Source: an uncultured delta proteobacterium (GTDB lineage Bacteria > Desulfobacterota > RBG-13-43-22). From it: DNA of 64,000 nt. Position numbers and translations under genes: made by a program. Below are positions 13,516 through 37,544 of this stretch, piece by piece (the stretch's first letter is position 1; the number at the start of each line of letters is the position of its first letter). The stretch lies in the NCBI GenBank assembly GCA_963711835.1, contig CAVQFQ010000021.1, positions 64,001 to 128,000 of the forward strand, given 5' to 3'. Below the pieces are notes generated by a model. It did no database searches, had not been told where the DNA came from, and saw nothing but the letters and a program-made list of their open reading frames with translations.

Positions 13516-14259
13516 ATGAATCTGATCTTGGGTTTGGTAACAGGACTTTCCGGTGGTTTTCTGGGCGGCCTGGTGGGCGTGGGGGGTGCGGTAGTCATGA
13601 TACCGTTTATGACCCGGTTGGCAGGGATGACTCAGCATCAGGCCCACGGAACCAGCCTGGTGGCTATTGTCTTTACAGGCCTGGCCGGGGCAGCCACTTA
13701 CTCTCTCCACGGGGCGGTTGATTGGAGGGCGGCTTTGCTGCTGGCAGCAACCGCCATTTTTTCGGCCCGCTATGGCGCGCTCTACGCCCATTCACTGCCG
13801 GAGAAAAAGCTGAGAAAGGCCTTTGGTGTTTTTCTGGTTGCGGTCTCGCTGCTCCTGGTGGCCAGGAATTTTCTCCCGGGGATAAGCCATGAGCCTGTCT
13901 GGTGGGTGAAAGTCGCCGCCTTTCTTCTCACCGGGGTGGCTTGCGGCTTCTTATCGGGCATGATGGGGGTCGGCGGGGGGGGCATCATGATCCCGCTGAT
14001 GGTCCTCCTGGCCGGTATGGAACAGCACCTGGCCCAGGGCACTTCACTCCTGGTGATGGCTCCGGCCGCCCTGATCGGCGCCTTGACCCATTACCGGCTG
14101 GGGAACGTCCGGTCGGCTATCGTTTGGGGTCTGGCGCCGGGAGCCGTTGCCGGCGGCTACCTGGGGGCCGCCACCGCCAACCTGCTCCCCGGGTTAACCC
14201 TGACGATCGTTTTCTGCGCGATGGGCGCCTGGATGGGGTTCCGGTACATCAGGGCCTGA
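13516..14259 (+). CDS. TauE/SafE (sulfite exporter family) membrane protein
   Basis: Two GGLVGVGG/GMMGVGGG repeats, each followed by AHGTSL/AQGTSL; multiple TM helices. Confidence 0.9.
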   Translation: MNLILGLVTGLSGGFLGGLVGVGGAVVMIPFMTRLAGMTQHQAHGTSLVAIVFTGLAGAATYSLHGAVDWRAALLLAATAIFSARYGALYAHSLPEKKLRKAFGVFLVAVSLLLVARNFLPGISHEPVWWVKVAAFLLTGVACGFLSGMMGVGGGGIMIPLMVLLAGMEQHLAQGTSLLVMAPAALIGALTHYRLGNVRSAIVWGLAPGAVAGGYLGAATANLLPGLTLTIVFCAMGAWMGFRYIRA

Positions 14260-14352
14260 GACTCTCTTCAAACATCGCCTGGATCCTTTGACTCGTATCA
14301 GCCTCCGACGGGAACTTGTCTTCCCGGTAACGCACTACCCGGGCAAACCTCT

Positions 14353-14381
14353 AATAAGTTCACTCAGCACCTACGTACCCT
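14353..14381 (+). repeat. RAYT-associated terminal motif copy (TAAG...ACGTACCC|T)
   Basis: aataagttcactcagcacctacgtaccct; near-identical to 19662-19690 and similar to the ends flanking the RAYT. Confidence 0.65.
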
Positions 14382-14446
14382 TCGACTCTTTACCCTTTTT
14401 TCGTCAGATCCATGGCAGTCCTCCATCAAAGGCTGAAGAGCGTTCC

Positions 14447-15055
14447 CTATTGTTTTATAAAAGTCGCTTCCAGGACGTGGTCGCCGGTGATTTCCTTGAA
14501 GGTGTAGGTGTTTATGGCGCCCTGCGAAACCTTGTCCACCAGGACCTCGGAAAGCCGGTAGCCGGGCAGGGGGATAATCTGGAACCTCCGCTTCTCCCCA
14601 TGCACCGCTTTTACCGTACCGTAAGGATGGATAACCCCGTTAAACGGGGGGCGGACGTGGATCGTGTACGTTTTCAGGGAAAAGTTGGCGGTGACCGTCA
14701 GGTCAGCTGACAGGATGACCGAACAAGTCCGGAAGGATCCCCCACAGGCCCCACTCCAGCCCTCGAATACGGAATGGGGGGCGGGAATCGCGACCAGGGT
14801 CACCGGCGTTCCTTTTTTAAAGGAGGGCCCGGCGGGGTTCCTTCTCACCTTGCCCTGCCCTTTACCGGTCAGGAGGATCGTCAGGGTATGCTGCGCTATG
14901 GCCGGCGCTTGGTCCGCGGCGGAAGGAAGGTTTGGCCGGGTATCCGGCGCCGCTTTGGGGGTTTCCTGACCGAAAACCCGGTCACCGAAATAGAACAGGA
15001 AGACTGTCAGGCCGAGTACGGGGAGGGCCCACTTCGGCCCGTTGCGCCCTTTCAT
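14447..15055 (-). CDS. Exported protein with divergent InlB B-repeat / bacterial repeat domains
   Basis: Signal-like N-terminus; LTILLTGKGQGKV...GTPVTLVAIP...FEGWSGAC...VTANF followed by a second repeat (PLPGYRLSEVLVD...DHVLEATF). Confidence 0.7.
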   Translation of the reverse strand: MKGRNGPKWALPVLGLTVFLFYFGDRVFGQETPKAAPDTRPNLPSAADQAPAIAQHTLTILLTGKGQGKVRRNPAGPSFKKGTPVTLVAIPAPHSVFEGWSGACGGSFRTCSVILSADLTVTANFSLKTYTIHVRPPFNGVIHPYGTVKAVHGEKRRFQIIPLPGYRLSEVLVDKVSQGAINTYTFKEITGDHVLEATFIKQ

Positions 15056-15068
15056 AACCTTCCTCCTT

Positions 15069-16073
15069 TTATTCGCGAATGGTTATCGGTCGTCGGTTCT
15101 CCAGCCGCTCCAGAGCGGTTTTGACGCTGGTTCGCATCCGCTCGATCGACTGGCCCAGTCGGGCGACTTCTCCTTCCCCCTCCACATTGACGGCCGCCTC
15201 CAGGTCCCCCATACTGATCCGGTCGGCCGCTTCCGACAGTTGACGGATCGGCCGGACGATGGAAAACGAAAAGGCGTAGATGACCGTCAGCAGCACGGCC
15301 AGGTCGATCAGGACGATGGCCAGGAAAATCAGGAACCGGTTTCTGTACCGCTCCGCGTAAGCGGCCTGCATCCGGTCCACCTTGGCCAGGATGGCGCCAA
15401 CCGGTTTTCCGAATTCGTCTATGTAGGTCGTGGCGGCCACGATCAGGTTCGTGCCTTCCACCGGGGCGCTGAACATGTACTTGGGCCGCACCTTCCCATC
15501 GATGTCCTTCCATTGGTAATAGCCACCCGAAGCCCCTTTCAGCCCCGCTTCCATGACCTTGACGAATTCCGGCAGTTTACCGGCCAGCCGATGCAGGTCG
15601 GTCCCCACGATCTTCGGGTTGACGTGAAAATAGTTGATCCCTTTATTGTTATGAACCGCCGTATAGCCGGTTTCCCCGACCCGCTGGATGGCAATCTCCT
15701 GGAGACGCGGCTGGTTGGCCAGGGCCGCCTCCGACAGGCCCGGATGCGCTTCAAGGTAGATTTCAATCTGCCGGGCCACCCCTTCGGCTTTTTCCTGAAT
15801 AATCTTTTCTCCCAGTTTGTTGAGGGAAGCGACGGATTCTTTGACGCTGGCGGCGCCCAGTTCCTTCAGGCTGTTGGACCCGAGGGCCCGGATGCTGACC
15901 AACGGGCCCACATTGACGAAAAGCAGGCCGGCGATGACCAGGAAGGCGATCAGAATGGGGACGAAGATCCCCAGCAGCAGGGTTCCCTTTAACCCCAGCC
16001 GGTTCATCCGCTGCCTGAACGGTCCCGTTATCCGGTCCAGAAAGCCCCCCTCGCGCTTCGATATTTCCGTCAT
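15069..16073 (-). CDS. Membrane sensor-like protein with Cache and HAMP domains but no output domain
   Basis: ATG 16073 after AGGAGG; TM, VGETGYTAV...HVNP Cache-like region, TM, HAMP (RPIRQLSEAADRISMGDL...EVARLGQSIERM), then stop. Confidence 0.75.
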   Translation of the reverse strand: MTEISKREGGFLDRITGPFRQRMNRLGLKGTLLLGIFVPILIAFLVIAGLLFVNVGPLVSIRALGSNSLKELGAASVKESVASLNKLGEKIIQEKAEGVARQIEIYLEAHPGLSEAALANQPRLQEIAIQRVGETGYTAVHNNKGINYFHVNPKIVGTDLHRLAGKLPEFVKVMEAGLKGASGGYYQWKDIDGKVRPKYMFSAPVEGTNLIVAATTYIDEFGKPVGAILAKVDRMQAAYAERYRNRFLIFLAIVLIDLAVLLTVIYAFSFSIVRPIRQLSEAADRISMGDLEAAVNVEGEGEVARLGQSIERMRTSVKTALERLENRRPITIRE

Positions 16074-16098
16074 GATCGATCCTCCTGGTTTTGAGTGT

Positions 16099-16926
16099 TT
16101 AACTGGTTTCGAGGGAAGAAAGCCAGGCGACATGCATGGCCTTGCCAAACTTTTCCCGTTTCGGCTCCTCCGTGATCTGGTCACAGACCGTCGAGATGAA
16201 ACTTTGCACCCGGTCCTTTGGGAAGGCCTCCCGGGATTCCTCAAAAGCCGCCAGGGTATCGTTCAGGATGATCCGGGCGATCGGCCCCACCACCTTCTTG
16301 AGTTCCGTCTCGGCGGCCTCGAAAAAGGCCTCGTCAACCATGGCCCTCAGCCCCGCTTTGGGAATATCGGCGGCCTCCGTTTTTTCGACCAGACCTCTTT
16401 CAACCAAGGCGTAGAGGTTGCCCGAAACATCAAACACGGTCCACCCGAGCCGACCGGCCATTTCGGAGACGTTTCGCCTCCCGTTGCACAGGGCGAGTAC
16501 GCCCCACTGTCCGGCCGGGATCACCCGGTCTTCGCCGCCGCTATCACCCACCAGGGAGAAGACGGCCTCGGAGGAAGGCACCAATTGCCTGATCTTCTTC
16601 CACTTCTCCTCCCGTTGGGACCAATTCGACATGACTTGCTCGGTGGGCAGGCGCACCGTGCGTTCCTCCGGCGACGTTCGCCAATTGAAGGTGACCCGGC
16701 CGATGTCCAGGTCCATAATGGGCAGGATCGCTTCTTCTCCGTTCAGGGTGTCGGTCCGGGCATGGACGATCTGGCCCCCCTCAATATATAACTCCGCTAC
16801 CTCCTTACCCTTCTTACCCTTGACCGCCATCAGCCCGGACCTCTTCCCGTCCACCAGAGGTTTTACCAGGTTGAATAAGCTTATTACCGAAAGATCTCCG
16901 ATCAAATCCTTGAACACAGGGTACAC
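16099..16926 (-). CDS. DUF4388 (PatA-N-like) domain protein
   Basis: GTG 16926 after AAGGAGG; GDLSVISLFNLV...SGLM...ELYIEGGQIVHA...GEEAI...G.VTF; wHTH-like middle; C-terminal VGPIARIIL motif. Confidence 0.72.
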   Translation of the reverse strand: MYPVFKDLIGDLSVISLFNLVKPLVDGKRSGLMAVKGKKGKEVAELYIEGGQIVHARTDTLNGEEAILPIMDLDIGRVTFNWRTSPEERTVRLPTEQVMSNWSQREEKWKKIRQLVPSSEAVFSLVGDSGGEDRVIPAGQWGVLALCNGRRNVSEMAGRLGWTVFDVSGNLYALVERGLVEKTEAADIPKAGLRAMVDEAFFEAAETELKKVVGPIARIILNDTLAAFEESREAFPKDRVQSFISTVCDQITEEPKREKFGKAMHVAWLSSLETS

Positions 16927-17025
16927 AGGCCGCCTCCTTTCCCGCTGCGAGCCCGGGCCTGGTCGGCGGAAGCGCCGACCCAACGAAAGACTCCGACGCC
17001 TAAATGCGTCGCAATAAAATGAAAA

Positions 17026-17053
17026 GGGTACGTTCGTGCAGAATGTGCTTAGC
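17026..17053 (-). repeat. RAYT-associated terminal motif copy (minus orientation)
   Basis: Reverse complement gctaagcacattctgcacgaacgtaccc matches 14353-14380 at 20 of 28 positions. Confidence 0.55.
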
Positions 17054-17111
17054 TAAGGCTTACCCACTGGAATTAGGGTCTATTTTCTTTGCATCAATTT
17101 ATTACGAAAGG

Positions 17112-17274
17112 AAGGCATAATTGCTCAGCTATCACTTCAACCGGCCGATTGGCAGTGGGACTTAATATAAGAACCAGAAATGTTAACTTCACAAAAACGG
17201 GTGACAGGAAGTCAGGAAAAAACCCACGAGGAAATCTAAGGGTAAGTATAGACTCAATTATTTTTGAATGTCAA
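17112..17274 (-). promoter_or_regulatory. Sigma70 promoter plus conserved non-coding leader, copy 1
   Basis: Minus strand TTGACA-18-TATACT; 28-bp and 15-bp blocks identical to copy 2 at 22649-22812. Confidence 0.7.
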
Positions 17275-17359
17275 GGTTTTTTTATCAATAAGGAATTCGA
17301 AAAGGGATCCTGGAACTTGGTGGAGCTTAGGAAGTCCTGATGATATACCCACCTGAGGC

Positions 17360-17586
17360 TTAAAAGGAACTCAGATCTTCCAAAAGTCGTGTCAGGGGCA
17401 CACACCGGACCCGGTTCTCTAAAAAAAGGTTCCTTCCCCTGCATGAATGATATTCAGGAGGTCTAATCTTAAGTCTTCCAAGGCGTTTTTCATTGAGGTG
17501 GTAAGACGGGGAGAACTCGTTTTTTTAAATTCAAATCCCAGCCGTTTTCTTCCTCGGATAATGAGGAGGTCCAGCTCGGCCCCAGC
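17360..17586 (-). pseudogene. C-terminal remnant of an AAA/DUF4143 ATPase
   Basis: AGAELDLLIIRGRKRLGFEFKKTSSPRLTTSMKNALEDLRLD..., homologous to the C-terminus of 23838-24986; no start codon; frameshift in the T7 run at 17421-17427. Confidence 0.8.
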
Positions 17587-17819
17587 TCTCTCCTCTACCC
17601 TTCGATGATTTTAGTAATGTGTCCCCCTAATTCGCAAACTCCTTTTCCTGGCAACCCGGTTAAATTCCTCCGCTCGGGTTTATGAGGCCTGTTTTCCCTG
17701 GGCCACCCTTTCCGATTTTAATTAATGCAACTTAGAACCAACATCCCGCTTTATGAGGGGGACATCCTGAATTAAATCCTCGTTGACCTTCCCGGCCAAC
17801 TCGACTATAAAATCGGCCT

Positions 17820-18779
17820 ATGCCCCCATCCATGTCCACCAAGGGGATGCTGAACCTGATCGTGGTCTATCTGGTCTGGGGCAGCACCTACCTTTTCATC
17901 CGTCTGACCGTCCATGAAGGAAGCGGCTTTCCGCCCTTTGCCATGGCGGCCAGCCGGACGCTGTGTGCCTCGGTGATTCTCTTTGGACTGGCCAGGGGCT
18001 GCGGTTACGGCCTATGGCCTTCGGGGCCGGAGATGCGGGTTCTGTTTGCCTCCGGTCTTCTGTTCTGGCTCGGCGGAAATGGCATGGTCGTCTGGGCCGA
18101 GCGCCATGCCGACTCGAGTTATGCCGCGCTGGTGGTTGGCACCACCCCCATGTGGCCGGTTATTATGGAATCCATCATCGAACGTAAGGCACCCTCTTTT
18201 CTGTTGGTGGTTTCCCTGCTGATCGGATTTGCCGGCCTGGCCGTCCTGGTTGCCCCGGTCCTGCAACAAGGCTTTCGGGCCGATGCCTCAGCCACCGCGG
18301 CCCTCCTGCTGGCCGCCATGGCCTGGTCTGCCGGCTCCCTGCTCCTGCAACGCCGGCCGCCGGGGTCTCCAGCGCTTTTGGTTTCCGCCTACCAGCACCT
18401 GTTCGGAGGGATGGGCTTGACCGCGGCCATGCTGCTGTCCGGCGAACCCTGGCCCCAACCCGCGGCCATGGCCTGGATCGGCTGGGCCTATCTGGTTATT
18501 TTCGGATCCCTGATCAGCTTTACCTCCTATCTCATCGCCGTGCGCACCCTGCCTATCTCCGTGGTCATGACCTACGCCTATATCAATCCGGTCATCGCCG
18601 TTATCCTCGGCTGGCTGGTCCTGGGAGAGCGCATCACCGCCTCGACCGTCTCGGGGATGGCCCTTATCCTGATCGGGGTCTTCGGTGTTTTCTGGAAACG
18701 GTTGCGCCGGGGCGAGTGGATGATTTTAGGTGGGTTTGATCCGTTTCTTTGGAAGGTCCGATTTTTTCCCGCTATTTAA
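17820..18779 (+). CDS. EamA/DMT family transporter
   Basis: VYLVWGSTY, PPF...R, GSLISFTSY, YAYINPVIAVILGWLVLGE; TTGACC-17-TATAAA at 17783-17811 just upstream. Confidence 0.9.
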   Translation: MPPSMSTKGMLNLIVVYLVWGSTYLFIRLTVHEGSGFPPFAMAASRTLCASVILFGLARGCGYGLWPSGPEMRVLFASGLLFWLGGNGMVVWAERHADSSYAALVVGTTPMWPVIMESIIERKAPSFLLVVSLLIGFAGLAVLVAPVLQQGFRADASATAALLLAAMAWSAGSLLLQRRPPGSPALLVSAYQHLFGGMGLTAAMLLSGEPWPQPAAMAWIGWAYLVIFGSLISFTSYLIAVRTLPISVVMTYAYINPVIAVILGWLVLGERITASTVSGMALILIGVFGVFWKRLRRGEWMILGGFDPFLWKVRFFPAI

Positions 18780-18838
18780 GATGCCGCCCCTTCAGTGGAG
18801 TGGACAGCGTCCCCCTCTACTGCTTCTATTCCAAGTTC

Positions 18839-18874
18839 TTGACAGATGGTCCGGATGGCATATAATATGCCATC
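18839..18874 (+). promoter_or_regulatory. Sigma70 promoter with overlapping palindromic operator for the dinJ-yafQ operon
   Basis: TTGACA-16-TATAAT; perfect inverted repeat GATGGCATA-taa-TATGCCATC over the -10 box. Confidence 0.8.
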
Positions 18875-18952
18875 TTACCCGGCTGTTTGGAGTTTTCATT
18901 TTAGATCGGCCGGGGATAAATCGCCTCCGTTAGGAGAAAAAGGAGGGGGAAA

Positions 18953-19216
18953 GTGGGAACAGTGAAAACCGCAACCGCCAGGGCTTTAATCGACCCGGAA
19001 GTTAAAAAAGAGGCGGAAGCCATACTTAAGGAAATGGGACTGTCGGTTTCCAATTCGGTGGAACTCTTTTACCGGCAAGTGGTGGCTCAAAGGGGTCTAC
19101 CTTTTGAAATTCATGTCCCGAATGAAAAAACCATGAAGGCCATCAGCAACTCCCGATCAGGGAAAGGGAAGAGGTTTGCCGGTACGGAAGATCTCTTTAA
19201 GGATCTGGGCATCTGA
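18953..19216 (+). CDS. dinJ: RelB/DinJ family antitoxin
   Basis: KKEAEAILKEMGLSVSNSVELFYRQVVAQRGLPFEI...PNEKTMKAI...LFKDLGI. Confidence 0.88.
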   Translation: MGTVKTATARALIDPEVKKEAEAILKEMGLSVSNSVELFYRQVVAQRGLPFEIHVPNEKTMKAISNSRSGKGKRFAGTEDLFKDLGI

Positions 19217-19220
19217 GGCC

Positions 19221-19489
19221 ATGCGTTCCATCAGGAGGGATAGCCAGTTCAAAAAAGATGTGAAGGTCCTGTTTAGACGCGGGAAAGACCCGGACAAATT
19301 AAAAAAACTATTGAATGCCTGGCCGCGGCTGAACCGTTGCCCGCTCGAACCAAAGATCATCCCCTCAAGGGAACGCTTAAGGATTGCCGGGAGTGTCCTA
19401 TTGAAGGGGACTGGCTTTTAATCTATCGGATCGAAGGCAGTGAACTTTGTCTGGTCAGGACAGGCTCTCATGCTGATTTGTTCAGGTAA
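19221..19489 (+). pseudogene. yafQ: YafQ family mRNA interferase toxin, frameshifted at A7 run (19301-19307)
   Basis: MRSIRRDSQFKKDVK...KLKK, then in the -1 frame TIECLAAAEPLPARTKDHPLKG...RECPIEGDWLLIYRI...LVRTGSHADLFR-stop. Confidence 0.85.
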
Positions 19490-19661
19490 TAAGGATTCGC
19501 ACCTGGTCCCCTAAAACTACAAGGTTTGGTCCCGGAATCTCCAATCAGTTTTTCAAGGCGCAGGATAAAAGACCTGGCCTCGCCGGGGCGCTTTTGGAAT
19601 GAAGGTAATTTTAAAGACACCTGCCTGATTTCCGAAATCTTTATCTTTTTATATCCTTGTT

Positions 19662-19690
19662 AATAAGTTCACTCAGTAACTACGTGCTCT
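19662..19690 (+). repeat. RAYT-associated terminal motif copy
   Basis: aataagttcactcagtaactacgtgctct; direct repeat of 14353-14381. Confidence 0.65.
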
Positions 19691-19731
19691 AAAACGTATA
19701 TCGCCCATGACCGACTCCAGCGGTTCCGGAA

Positions 19732-20577
19732 TTAGATCACTCCGCGATAAAAGGCCAGCCGCCGGGCATACGGTGAATAAAGGTCGAGGATCTGTTGTTG
19801 TTCTTCAGGGGATAACGGTTCAAAATGGCGGCCGATCCGGGCCAGGGTTTTTACCTCTTCCGGCGTGGAGCAGCCGACAATGGCCAAGGTGATGGGCTGC
19901 GAAAGGGCAAATCGAATAAGCAACTCGGCTGTTATTCCGGTCTGGGGGATTAAATAATGAGAACCCCCCAAGACCTTCATCCCAATGACCGCCGCTCCTT
20001 TTGCCCGGGCAGCCGGAAGGGTGGAGGTCAGAAACCCTCCCAGGTTCCCCTCTACGGGATTGACGGGTATGAGGACCGAATCTATCGGCCAGGCCTTAAC
20101 GGCCCTGGTCAAAATTTCCGGATCATGATGACCGGTCAGGCCGATAAAGCGGATTTTCCCGCCGGCCTTGGCCTCGATAAAGGCCTCCAAGGCCCCGCCC
20201 GGCCCGGCTATGGTTTGAAAATCTTCTTCAGTCCTTACATCATGGATCTGCCAGAGATCAAGGTAATCGGTTCCCAGGTTGAGCAGGGTACGGTCTAATT
20301 CCTGGAGGGCCTCCCTTTTAGTCCTCATGGCCGATTTGCTGGTCTGAAAGATTCCGGCCCGGTCCTGGGGACGCCGGGTCCAGACCAAACCGTAATAGGC
20401 TTCACTTCCGGCATAGGCCCGGGCGGAATCAAAATAGCCGATCCCCTCGTCCAGGGCGGTCTCGATCACCTTCCGGGCCGTCTTTTCCCTTCCGAAGGTC
20501 CTGAGGACGCCTTCGCCTCCAAGACCGACGACGGTGATTTTCCGGCTGCTATTACCAAAAGATCTTTTTAAAAGCAT
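19732..20577 (-). CDS. Aldo/keto reductase
   Basis: GLGG, FDSARAY, TSKS, LGTDYLDLWQIH, GKIRFIGLTGH, IGMKVLGG. Confidence 0.9.
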   Translation of the reverse strand: MLLKRSFGNSSRKITVVGLGGEGVLRTFGREKTARKVIETALDEGIGYFDSARAYAGSEAYYGLVWTRRPQDRAGIFQTSKSAMRTKREALQELDRTLLNLGTDYLDLWQIHDVRTEEDFQTIAGPGGALEAFIEAKAGGKIRFIGLTGHHDPEILTRAVKAWPIDSVLIPVNPVEGNLGGFLTSTLPAARAKGAAVIGMKVLGGSHYLIPQTGITAELLIRFALSQPITLAIVGCSTPEEVKTLARIGRHFEPLSPEEQQQILDLYSPYARRLAFYRGVI

Positions 20578-20580
20578 TTT

Positions 20581-21663
20581 AGGGGACGTTGCTGAAAATC
20601 ATAACTTATTGTTTGATCGTCTGCTCATTTCTTCGGCAGTTCGCTCCACTGCCTTTATGATGGCTGTGGTACTCACCCCCAGGTTTCGGGCAATTTCAGC
20701 ACAACTGATTCCTCTTTCCCGGTTGAGCAGATAGCCCACTTTCGCCCGGACCGCCGAGACCTTTCTTCGCTGGCTGCCCTGCCTGAGTTCCATCTCCAGG
20801 ACCGATTCCTTTTGACACTGTTCCCGGATCACTCGATCAATCAAGTTTCTTCCTCTCACCATTCTTCAACTGCCTTCGAATCCCCGCATCGGCCTCCAGG
20901 ATAATTTGTTCCACAAAATCCCCTCGGCCCAAAACCCGGGGATCATGTTCCCTGCTTTCCCCGCTGTCCCTCAATGACCGGACTTGCGACCATCCCCCAA
21001 GACTCCGAACCAAACCCCCTCCGCTCAAATCATCTCGTCTGCCCCGGCCTTTGGCCTCTTCCACAAAGGTCCGGTAGGCCCTTACCGCCCGTCTCCGGTC
21101 TGGCCCGAATTGTCCCAGGACATAGTCTCGGTCCTGCCAGCCGGCTTGATGACGACCCACCAGGACTGCGTGACCGCTCCAGGGATAGCGGTCTAATTCA
21201 CCGATATGGGCTACTATTCTTCCTCGAAGGGGATTCAAATGGATATACCGTACCAGTTCCAAAAGATAGGGGTCTTCCTCACAGACGATGGACTTATAGC
21301 GGTTTTGGAATAGATGGCCTTTTCTTTTATGTCTCCGGTTAAACCCTGACGGCGTACCCGGTCAAAAGACAACGCATAAACCGGGAAATTCCGCTTGGCC
21401 CGCTGAACAGCAAAAAATGAATATGGTTATCCATTAAAACCCAGGCCAGAATCCGGGTCCCGGTTTTAAGGACCAATCGTTCGATTCGGGCCAGGAGATC
21501 AGCGCGATCCTGATCATCGCGAAAGATCTTCACCCCTTCTATCCCTCGGGCCATGATATGGTGAAGGGTCCCGGGGGCATCTAATCGGGCTTGGCGCGGC
21601 ATAACCCCTCTTATAGCAACTTCCCAATACCTGGTAAAGTTATTTTTTTCATCAACGTCCCCT
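20581..21663 (-). mobile_element. RAYT-type (Y1 HUH) transposase gene with C-terminal HTH, broken by two frameshifts and flanked by ~29-bp imperfect inverted repeats
   Basis: CDS 21602 to 20599: MPRQARLDAPGTLHHIMARG, MDNHIH (HUH), FNRRHKRKGHLFQNRYKS, YIHLNP, YPWSGH; frameshifts at ~21345 and ~20846; ends aagttatgattttcagcaacgtcccct (reverse complement, 20581-20607) and aagttatttttttcatcaacgtcccct (21637-21663). Confidence 0.85.
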
Positions 21664-21880
21664 CTTCATGAAACAAACCCAGCAACCGGACTACGCTGAA
21701 ATTAGGTCGCCCGGTTTTGCCATAAAGCATCGCATATCGATCTTCGTTTTTAAACAGTATGGGAAGAACTTCGAATTTAAACAGGTGCGCCCAGGAAGAT
21801 TCTATACGATTACGTAATGAGGCTGAGAGCTGTGTGTCTATACCGAATAACTTTTGTTGGGGAGATGTTTTCTTATACAT
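21664..21880 (-). pseudogene. N-terminal fragment of a DDE transposase (IS1182/IS5-like, DUF772 region)
   Basis: MYKKTSPQQKLF...SWAHLFKFEVLP...LYGKTGRPNFSVVRLLGL; similarity stops at the RAYT terminal motif. Confidence 0.6.
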
Positions 21881-22648
21881 GACTATGTATAGCATATTCA
21901 TGCAGTTAAAGCAAGTGTTACTTCTCGGGAATCCTATGTGAAAGGCGTCCCCTTTTAACATTTATTAACCGGGAATTGAATAAAGCATATTGGGATGATC
22001 TACTTAAAAGTGAGTTACTTCTCAGGAATCACTTTTTTACGAGCGTCCCCATTTTCATGGGATAAATGTTTGTATGGTTTTGGCATAGCCACTTAGGATA
22101 GCATGTTCCTTCCTGCTTTCCCAAGTGTTGCACTTCGCTATTGAACTGACGAAATCGTTATTTTTCTCAAAATGAAATATTTCCTCTTGACAGGAAGAAT
22201 ATAGGATGTCCCCTAAAACAACTCCTCTGTTAAGAAAATGGGGGTTCTTTGACCCTTAAACAATTCCTTACCTTTACCGTCTTCTCTTCTTTCGGTCATG
22301 CATAACCTTCAAAGGCTTTAGGCGTTGCTGCTTCTCTGTTTCTATCGCGCTGAGTGTTCGTTCTGCGTACTGTTTCATATTCCTTACTATCGATTCCAGT
22401 TATTGAAAAACGTAATTACTTTCATCTGCCCTCCTATAGTTTAGCTTGATGCTTATGCCGGAATGACGCCAATAGTTTCGAATCTAGGCAAAAAGGCTTA
22501 TGTTAACGGCATTGGACCGATCCCCAATCCCTGAGAACCATTTTGCACAGCATGGGCGATGGGCCACCGATAGGCGACCCACCACGGACGTCAGAGAGAA
22601 CTGGCATTTCTGGCGATTCGCCACAGGTCGTGGTTTTGTTCAAAATTA

Positions 22649-22812
22649 AAGGCATATTTGTAAAGCTATCACTTCAACTGGTCATTTGGCCGGGTAACTT
22701 ACTTCAAAAGCAAGGAAATGTTAACTTCACAAAAACGGGTGAAAGGAACTCAGGGGAAAACCCCCGGGGAGTATGTAAGAGTAGGTATATTCAGATAAAA
22801 TGGGAATGTCAA
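22649..22812 (-). promoter_or_regulatory. Sigma70 promoter plus conserved non-coding leader, copy 2
   Basis: Minus strand TTGACA-17-TATACC; blocks 22715-22742 and 22664-22678 identical to copy 1. Confidence 0.7.
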
Positions 22813-22825
22813 CCTTTTTTTAAAA

Positions 22826-22970
22826 GGCGTTCGGAGTTGGGAGTTCGGGGTTCGGCGGATGAAGAAAAAGGGGCTCGGATTCAGAGTTCAGGGTTCAGCG
22901 GAAAGGCAAGGTCATAAAAAGACAGGAGGGGAGGGGGGGGGAAGGACGTTCGGCGTTCGGAGAAGGAAAA
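22826..22970. repeat. Composite heptamer-repeat spacer R1
   Basis: CGTTCGG/GGTTCAG units; ~57-bp core 22869-22925 nearly identical to 25166-25224. Confidence 0.85.
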
Positions 22971-23647: not shown

Positions 23648-23735
23648 AGGGGGGAGGGAAAGACACGTTCGGCGTTCAACGTTCGGGGTTCGGGGAAAAT
23701 GACATCTCACCGCAAAGACGCAAAGATCGCAAAGA
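23648..23735. repeat. Composite spacer R2 (CGTTCGG heptamers plus CGCAAAGA(T/C) 8-9-mers)
   Basis: cgttcggcgttcaacgttcggggttcgg and cgcaaagacgcaaagatcgcaaag. Confidence 0.8.
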
Positions 23736-25083: not shown

Positions 25084-25255
25084 AACTCATAGCTCATAGC
25101 AAGAAAACCGTAAGGGGTGAGGGCGCAAGGGGGGGGAAGACGTTCGGCGTTCAGCGTTCGGCGATAAGGGGCTCAGGATTCAGAGTTCAGGGTTCAGCGG
25201 AAAGGCAAGGTCATAAAAAGACAGAGGGAGAGAAGACGTTCGGCGTTCAGAGAGA
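25084..25255. repeat. Composite heptamer-repeat spacer R3
   Basis: GCTCATA, CGTAAGG/CGCAAGG, CGTTCGG and GGTTCAG units; shares blocks with both R1 and R4. Confidence 0.85.
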
Positions 25256-25286
25256 GAACAATAACAGAAAAGATCGGCTATTGACC

Positions 25287-37402: not shown

Positions 37403-37479
37403 TAATAGCTTAATTTTTTTAACATATTAAAATAACTGTTAATTTTAAACAAAGAGTCACTATCTGAAATCCTTTGGAT

Positions 37480-37544
37480 GAAATAACTGTCTAATTATTA
37501 GGCACATACTTTTGCAATGTGTCTAATAATTAGACAGTTATTTC
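37480..37544. promoter_or_regulatory. Enhancer (bEBP UAS): two TGTCTAA-N3-TTAG(A/G)CA boxes within a 65-bp palindrome
   Basis: Boxes at 37488-37504 and 37520-37536; perfect 21-bp outer arms; ~85-135 bp upstream of the -24 element with AT-rich DNA in between. Confidence 0.75.

Follow-up and report, generated by a model that had tools for sequence, protein, structure and literature searches.

The window analyzed here, 64,000 nucleotides (nt) from an uncultured delta proteobacterium of the Desulfobacterota (contig CAVQFQ010000021.1, positions 64,001 to 128,000), contains an accessory island in which copies of a short end repeat lie between the genes, and two of these copies enclose a gene for a Y1 transposase. 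We found that the repeats are the terminal inverted repeats (TIRs) of TIRtrons, elements whose transposase (TIRYT) belongs to TnpA-Y1 subclass 2.1. On the basis of where neighboring DNA breaks relative to these ends, we propose, with a probability of about 0.55, that TIRYT acts on one end at a time, nicking 5 nt beyond the tip of the repeat and exchanging strands with a loosely chosen second site. TIRYT would nick about 5 nt past the conserved tip (…ACGTCCCCT-NNNAC, cut after the C), and the nicked end would be joined to a second site of loose specificity. If that site lay on the outer side, the neighbor gene would be deleted or trimmed, and if it lay on the inner side, a circle or a tandem copy of the captured DNA plus one end would form; this product could re-enter by homologous recombination or through another nick. 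The arrays of solo ends, most of them facing the same way, would be the outcome of repeated rounds carried out by the five or six enzyme/end subfamilies that share the genome. In this model TIRYT itself would make the cuts, presumably on one strand and with single-stranded DNA as substrate, and its helix-turn-helix (HTH) domain would bind the repeat. Below, G000 is the genome that holds the window, C-numbers are its contigs (the window lies on C21), and bare coordinates are positions in the window.

How many ends does this genome carry, and how are they arranged? The five ends reported in the initial annotation, here named A (tip 14381, plus strand), B (17025/6, minus), C (19690, plus), D (20581, minus) and E (21663, plus), are where it had placed them, together with GCGTCCCC copies at about 21953 and 22051. 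The scan that it had suggested, with a matrix built from these five ends, gave 27 genome matches above 20 bits (5 were the training sites) versus 0 in one shuffled genome. Refined subfamily matrices gave 110 matches versus 9 in a shuffle, and for counting we took the 98 matches above 22 bits plus two window sites added by hand. These approximately 100 copies fall into six subfamilies: alpha (ends A and C), beta (D and E), delta (B), gamma, zeta and eps. Over 26 nt, D and E share 23 matches, A and C 22, A and B 20, B and C 16, A and D 14, and C and D 12. As had been noted, the ends are not hairpins, since either strand of the five named ends folds at only 0 to −2.7 kcal/mol; the zeta end, unlike them, folds at −6.8 kcal/mol with its flank. 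Ends are clustered, with another end within 4 kb for 74% of them versus 18% at random, and adjacent ends face the same way in a ratio of 25:8 (P = 0.005).

Only 24 of the 100 ends form matched pairs, and 76 are solo. The 12 pairs comprise five with a transposase gene, each gene lying within a 1.08-kb inverted pair of a single end type, six mini-elements of 235 to 403 bp, and one with cargo. In the last (C4:324241-325110), a delta-type mini-element, with arms as in the C14 mini-element, holds a higBA toxin-antitoxin pair between its arms; this is a true two-ended cargo element, with matched inward ends around passenger genes, and the sole such pair in the genome. These pairs are what would be expected from a selfish pile-up, in which TIRtrons and their mini-derivatives would insert into dispensable islands as units with two ends (at +5), solo ends would be left by decay, and the rearrangement of neighboring genes would be due to deletions and horizontal transfer that have nothing to do with the ends. 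Monomer, dimer and clustered TIR families have been published (PMC3733652), the island genes lack ends in most relatives, and other repeats, insertion sequence (IS) pieces and integron debris occupy the same islands. Decay does not predict the bias toward one direction, however, nor genes cut near tips at varied positions across strains. For these reasons, and others given below, we regard a pile-up as rather unlikely.

We then asked which enzyme belongs to which end. Of the 12 Y1_Tnp matches in G000, the window gene carries one-base frameshifts at 20843 and 21348 relative to an intact, 92%-identical, 330-amino-acid copy in L034 (one of L033 to L036, the four closest of 32 metagenome loci, which were read in detail). 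The intact protein matches PF01797 and has the HIH and YIHLNP motifs; H60, H62 and Y119 are invariant in 24 homologues. Its C-terminal HTH gave HTH_11, HTH_23 and Bac_DnaA_C matches, all under the curated cut-offs, and its predicted structure has a helical C-terminal domain and TnpA_REP (4ER8) as best structural match. A PDB sequence search returned no match, and a contig scan for the transposase yielded distant homologues only (26 to 42%), which were not used. The score against NF047646, the canonical RAYT model, was 56 versus a cut-off of 80. Homologues of TIRYT occur in 19 of 21 family genomes, and homologous genes elsewhere are flanked as the initial annotation anticipated, with an inverted pair of at least 19/24 at 15 of 28 loci outside G000. 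The exact full-end pattern was present in 13 of 301 phylum genomes (16 matches versus 6 control matches); outside the family it was not clearly above control.

The D and E ends are inverted (27 nt, 89%) around the Y1_Tnp-plus-HTH gene, as first described. The initial annotation had attributed all of the ends to this one RAYT; instead, each of the alpha, beta, gamma, delta and zeta types has an enzyme clade of its own, as read off a 37-row protein tree without a statistical test. Only D and E match the window's transposase, and cognate enzymes for A and C (alpha) and for B (delta), about 47 to 58% identical, are encoded elsewhere in the genome. The three pairs that had been proposed as units are therefore all mismatched, and neither 14381/17026 nor 19690/20581 is supported as a cargo bracket. 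We also rejected 17026-19690 as one non-autonomous element carrying EamA and dinJ-yafQ: its ends are delta and alpha, and it contains three further plus-strand ends that had been overlooked (17724-17749, 18790-18815 and 19488-19512). Near-identical TIRtrons lie in unrelated flanks of different genomes (97.7% between two genera), with similarity stopping a few nucleotides from the tips. Thus, the 1.08-kb unit is mobile. The zeta TIRtron on C5 is the one that is 97.7% identical to a copy in the other genus (G020).

Where do the joins lie? The initial annotation had put the breakpoint between C and T in ACGT(A/C)CCCT, whereas the junctions lie about 5 nt further out. After ACGTCCCNN, positions +4/+5 are AC in 18 of 70 intact G000 tips (P = 1.6e-10) and in 15 of 54 and 15 of 82 tips of relatives (overlapping sets). 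When pooled, 31 of 149 tips have AC there versus a 4.3% background, the sites not being fully independent. C stands at +5 in 75 of 149 tips, and from +5 to +6 the count of G climbs from 10 to 42 of 149. The commonest spacer 4-mer in relatives is TTAC (14/82), which is also the IS608 target, a likeness that may be chance. TIR-free homologues resume at about +5 to +9, as seen at C10:115027, C10:113998, C17:65979, C12:274, C13:36378, end D, the zeta end, the metagenome loci L034, L033 and L212, and three ends in L124. Overall, breakpoints lie at +4 to +9, with a mode of +5. When TIRtrons that are nearly identical but differently flanked are compared, agreement extends to about +4 to +7, and some pairs diverge at the tip itself. 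The spacer is unlike the native target in its letters and so belongs to the end; C is mostly the last letter on the target side (roughly nine joins, by eye). We thus predict from these alignments that the physical end is …ACGTCCCCT-NNNAC, about 5 nt past the conserved tip. No target duplications were apparent at paired ends on inspection by eye.

The phasing of breakpoints to the TIR tip also bears on whether the arrays are the work of another recombinase, such as an integron integrase or a DDE transposase, with TIRtron ends merely inserting there. On C10, an attC-like site is found 4 kb away from ends, and pieces of integron integrase occur in the genome, one of them cut at a zeta tip. However, no integrase match reached the family cut-off (best 152 of 265 bits), a crude attC scan was empty in the window island (16 matches genome-wide versus 7 shuffled), and breakpoints phased to the tip would not be expected; an Rfam search of the island was likewise empty, a weak test for attC. 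We consider it very improbable that another recombinase builds the arrays.

Comparison of close strains revealed the same parts in other orders. Besides the four closest metagenome loci, we used five of 24 listed sediment runs (X1 to X5); as assembled contigs, these show presence only. In L034 and L035, an intact TIRtron lies between EamA and a gene that is on C7 in G000, and the aldo/keto reductase gene (AKR) and dinJ-yafQ are absent at that place. The same EamA-to-transposase join is found in X3 and X4, where AKR is absent at this place as well, and in one X5 contig EamA is followed by a 45-bp remnant of the transposase, then an alpha end, then AKR. An alpha-type end is joined 40 bp before EamA in close strains, and EamA itself is joined at about 17771 in G000 versus 17780 in L034/L035, X3, X4 and X5. 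A gamma end is joined in the middle of tauE at 14063 in 5/5 sediment runs and at 14203 in L033; tauE and EamA are native neighbors in L033, and the 3′ part of tauE follows a gamma end in other strains. The ends thus mark synteny breakpoints, as had been expected of them, the AKR block being present or absent with its breakpoint at the 20581 end. Ends, genes and transposase are reordered between close strains, and the same gene is joined at different positions.

These junctions argue against fixed cassettes. If end pairs delimited fixed multi-kilobase cargo moving from tip to tip in the manner of integron cassettes or pdif modules, one would expect what is in fact seen in several places: nearly every gene block of the window starts after a plus-strand end, each end of the C4 arrays comes with a single gene, strains differ in whether AKR is there at end D, and different end types are joined to EamA, as they are to the IS fragment, at points within 9 to 15 bp of each other. 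Fixed cassettes are nevertheless weakened by junctions at different positions of the same gene across strains, since block borders then vary. The named pairs are mismatched subfamilies, several joins cut within genes (tauE, the start of AKR, the IS, the integron integrase piece on C5), and no block with both the same borders was found in a second context. Among relatives of other genera, the three-gene operon that lies between ends A and B is found in 7 genomes at 83 to 92% DNA identity (purH, 73 to 80%), with no abutting end in 7/7; in G007 there is an alpha end at a distance of 556 bp. No end abuts EamA in 8/8, tauE in 2/2 or dinJ-yafQ in 4/4 relatives, and for AKR there is none in 5/6, the remaining genome, G016, having a delta end on the 3′ side only. 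The operon, EamA and AKR as TIR-bounded traveling cassettes were therefore rejected, and we judge precise cassettes in general to be improbable. In favor of the earlier suggestion that the system captures whole genes, one matched pair, that around higBA, does enclose cargo.

Possible signatures of a one-ended reaction are found in what follows the tips. On C10, a tip is followed by a 624-bp, 95% copy of the 3′ part of a gene from its own inner side, and on C13 by a 172-bp, 89% copy of the same kind; the source genes lie 1.3 to 1.6 kb inward of the tip. In relatives we found six more inner-only copies, one outer-only copy and two on both sides, and in G000 two short outer-only copies. Some tips show micro-repeats, e.g., GTCCCCT-ATTCC, in which +5 has been joined back to a point within the repeat. 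G004 has a block upstream of an alpha end that in G009 follows the tip of a similar end. Joining of the tip plus 5 nt to an upstream site, giving a circle or tandem copy, would produce both the inner-side copies and the micro-repeats, and joins to downstream sites would produce the trimming observed at tips in tauE, the start of AKR, the IS and the C5 integron integrase piece. Decay of two-ended elements predicts neither inner-side copies right after the tip nor +5 micro-repeats.

The initial annotation had noted that the ATG of AKR lies 3 nt from the tip, which we confirmed; as AKR begins five codons earlier in relatives, this ATG is a product of the junction. The IS fragment is truncated at the 21663 end, as had been proposed: similarity to two relatives begins at 21670, and in G013 a zeta end truncates the same IS 15 bp farther along. 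The ancestral promoter region of the three-gene operon ends 30 bp from tip B (similarity stops at 16995), and in G000 it is replaced by a repeat with an outward TTGACA-18-TATACT. Copies of this leader repeat lie at 17054-17280 and 22649-22810 in the window, at C15:148645-148886 and at C17:623798-624014, and contigs of sediment runs X1 and X5 span the end B junction.

Several observations weigh against one-ended joining at +5. AC occupies +4/+5 in just 21% of tips, and of the 10 tips in the window 3 have it there; there is a second peak at +6 to +8. The joins at A, B and gamma lie 22 to 65 bp from the nearest recognizable homology, so later decay or other processes contribute. The counts of 8 inner-only, 3 outer-only and 2 two-sided copies are suggestive, not significant, and some of the copies are short repeats. 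New ends landing beside old ends were only weakly enriched (10/177, P about 0.05). No strand bias by replication was seen (27:36 sites, 12:14 clusters), in an assembly that is fragmented and has a noisy GC skew. No free circle was seen in the examined runs, which are assembled contigs, and the joint from 17742 back to 14063 runs on into other DNA. The empty-site junctions that the initial annotation had proposed to look for did not appear: no comparison gave a clean empty site (both flanks contiguous, insert absent), and in genus g2 the islands differ wholesale, with no contiguous empty site. Finally, the five sediment runs may come from one campaign and one lineage. With these points taken into account, we retain one-ended joining at the probability given above. 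The features of the island are listed in Table 1.

Table 1. Genes and end repeats of the window island
Feature	Position	Strand	Remarks
tauE/SafE gene	13516..14259	+	Pfam PF01925; last gene before the island
Alpha-type end A	14352..14386	+	Tip 14381, spacer TCGAC to 14386; its cognate transposase is of the C10 clade, not that of the window
Three-gene operon (DUF4388; Cache/HAMP; Flg_new_2 repeat)	14447..16914	-	In 7 relatives of other genera
Delta-type end B	17020..17053	-	Tip 17025; occupies the place of the operon's own promoter region in relatives
Repeated leader	17054..17280	-	TTGACA-18-TATACT directed through end B into the operon
Gamma-type end	17724..17754	+	Tip 17749, spacer TTTAT; then a reversed tip remnant at about 17756-17765
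EamA transporter	17820..18779	+	Lengthened by a one-base insertion at 18715 (319 aa vs 300 aa in close strains)
Zeta-type end	18790..18820	+	Tip 18815, spacer TCTAC; the block after it is similar to L033 from 18823 on
dinJ-yafQ toxin-antitoxin pair	18953..19490	+	yafQ frameshifted in the window, intact in L033
Decayed alpha-like end at yafQ stop	19488..19517	+	Repeat 19488-19512, GTCCCCT then AAAAC; by eye, under the matrix threshold
Alpha-type end C	19661..19695	+	Tip 19690, spacer AAAAC
Aldo/keto reductase (AKR)	19732..20577	-	First five codons cut off at end D; ATG straddles the junction
Beta-type end D	20576..20610	-	Downstream TIRtron end; tip 20581
TIRYT transposase	20599..21602	-	HUH H60-I-H62, Y119-IHLNP, C-terminal HTH; two frameshifts
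Beta-type end E	21635..21668	+	Upstream TIRtron end; tip 21663
5′ fragment of another IS transposase	21670..21880	-	Cut about 6 nt past tip E
Two eps-type ends about 99 bp apart	21928..22056	+	Tips 21953 and 22051; GCGTCCCC copies

Additional observations concern these features and other repeats of the genome. The IS fragment had no Pfam or NCBIfam match. The eps type also bounds a C13 mini-element that retains the N terminus of TIRYT. The leader repeat is a promoter-plus-leader of about 200 bp with many short matches in relatives, and an Rfam search with it gave no match. The DUF4388, Cache-HAMP and Flg_new_2 operon (14446-16995) exceeds purH in conservation across genera, stands in different neighborhoods and is a recently spread sensory module. 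In the delta-end arrays on C4 (320273-326152 and 348827-353593), genes stop 2 to 38 bp from the next tip, some begin 45 to 60 bp inside an end, and attC-like stretches lie nearby (by eye). On C21, a toxin-antitoxin block is present as an inverted duplicate (C21:7990-9162 and C21:355156-356343), with similarity stopping a few nucleotides past a gamma tip. The C-terminal integron integrase piece (C5:298848-299072) starts right at the zeta TIRtron tip. TIRtron ends of the classic GGGGTC type are also present, in a TIRtron at C12:140900-142200 and as a solo end at C10:47395, where similarity to L033 stops. Further along the window, GTTCGGCGTTC-type repeats (22827-22970, 23649-23695 and 25124-25260) occur among brnT, DUF4143 ATPase and hicA modules, and a strong 55-bp palindrome (C21:101485-101539) lies within 37434-37539. 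An unrelated abundant repeat, AAGCCCTTTGGGGT…GAGAATCACGTA, has about 40 copies genome-wide in G000, e.g., at C4:55772 and C5:178386.

How do these elements compare with known systems? TIRtrons were described in 2013 as a RAYT-like tyrosine transposase gene between terminal inverted repeats at a near-constant distance, with repeats also dispersed singly, as dimers or in groups, and with several genes per genome having different TIRs (PMC3733652). A Y1 HUH gene, non-REP inverted ends and dispersed families are all found here. The tip, GGGGACGT, is two mismatches from the GGGGWSAS motif of most, not all, published cases (PMC3733652), and the TIRtron on C12 has GGGGTCAA. The transposase fits subclass 2.1.2 (PMC6006769), which corresponds to RAYT group 1, the most IS-like RAYT group (PMC5581495): it shares the HUH and Y---NP motifs, the long protein, the C-terminal HTH (Bac_DnaA_C/HTH-like) and the lack of REP hairpins. 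Canonical RAYTs or REPtrons (groups 2 and 3) go with GTAG-tagged REP hairpins, which were not found flanking here. E. coli TnpA_REP, which has the same fold (4ER8) as TIRYT, cuts away from its binding site with low specificity and performs strand transfer, and models for it include circles, tandem amplification and the sequestering of flanking genes (PMC3333891). TnpA_REP binds a GTAG-tagged hairpin of the BIME and cuts between C and T (PMC3333891), whereas here the site is a non-hairpin inverted repeat with a probable cut after NNNAC. The IS200/IS605 elements (IS608, ISDra2) share the HUH Y1 fold and have subterminal hairpins and unlike ends, unlike here, and the intact intI and the attC sites between genes that mark an integron were not found in the scans described above.

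A parallel in behavior is with ISCR1/IS91. Both have an HUH enzyme, and the way ISCR1/IS91 moves from one end, makes no target duplication, captures adjacent genes and leaves partial duplications of the anchor region (PMC3575428) resembles what we propose for TIRtrons. ISCR elements differ in having dissimilar oriIS and terIS, no inverted repeats and a larger, different transposase (PMC3575428), while inverted repeats are present here. We would therefore say that TIRtrons may work like ISCR elements, not that they belong to them. Re-entry of ISCR elements has been explained by a homologous-rescue model. Tentatively, and at somewhat less than even odds, one-ended joining may amount to a widespread, integrase-free form of gene capture, in which a single cognate end serves as origin, the cut falls at +5, upstream genes are circularized and re-entry takes place at anchor genes; arrays would then grow and reorder with one same-facing end per module, as an environmental counterpart of ISCR.

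Earlier publications already cover TIRtrons, dispersed TIR families and the proposal that REP-type enzymes capture genes. What is added here are the joins about 5 nt past the tip, the reordering between strains and the inner-side copies after tips. The passages of PMC3733652 on TIRtrons give no end position, cargo, one-ended joining or link to synteny breaks, and the sections on subclass 2.1.2 in the papers cited above assign it no substrate or activity; the cut position, cognate ends and products are proposed here. In the wider literature consulted, mostly outside subscription journals, the names TIRYT and TIRtron came up in two papers only, and end position, one-ended joining or array building was not found for the TIRYT group. 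Among Y1 transposases, subclass 2.1 ranks second in size and is present in 14.9% of strains (PMC6006769). The locus provides a testable substrate, with cognate end types for five enzyme clades, a predicted +5 cut, predicted products and natural intact enzymes, of which the beta-type one is in L034 and the alpha, gamma, delta and zeta ones are on C10, C8, C17 and C5 of G000. If one-ended joining is true, it would add a small HUH recombinase with a defined non-hairpin site, and it would explain how integron-free accessory islands gain, trim and reorder their genes and promoters.

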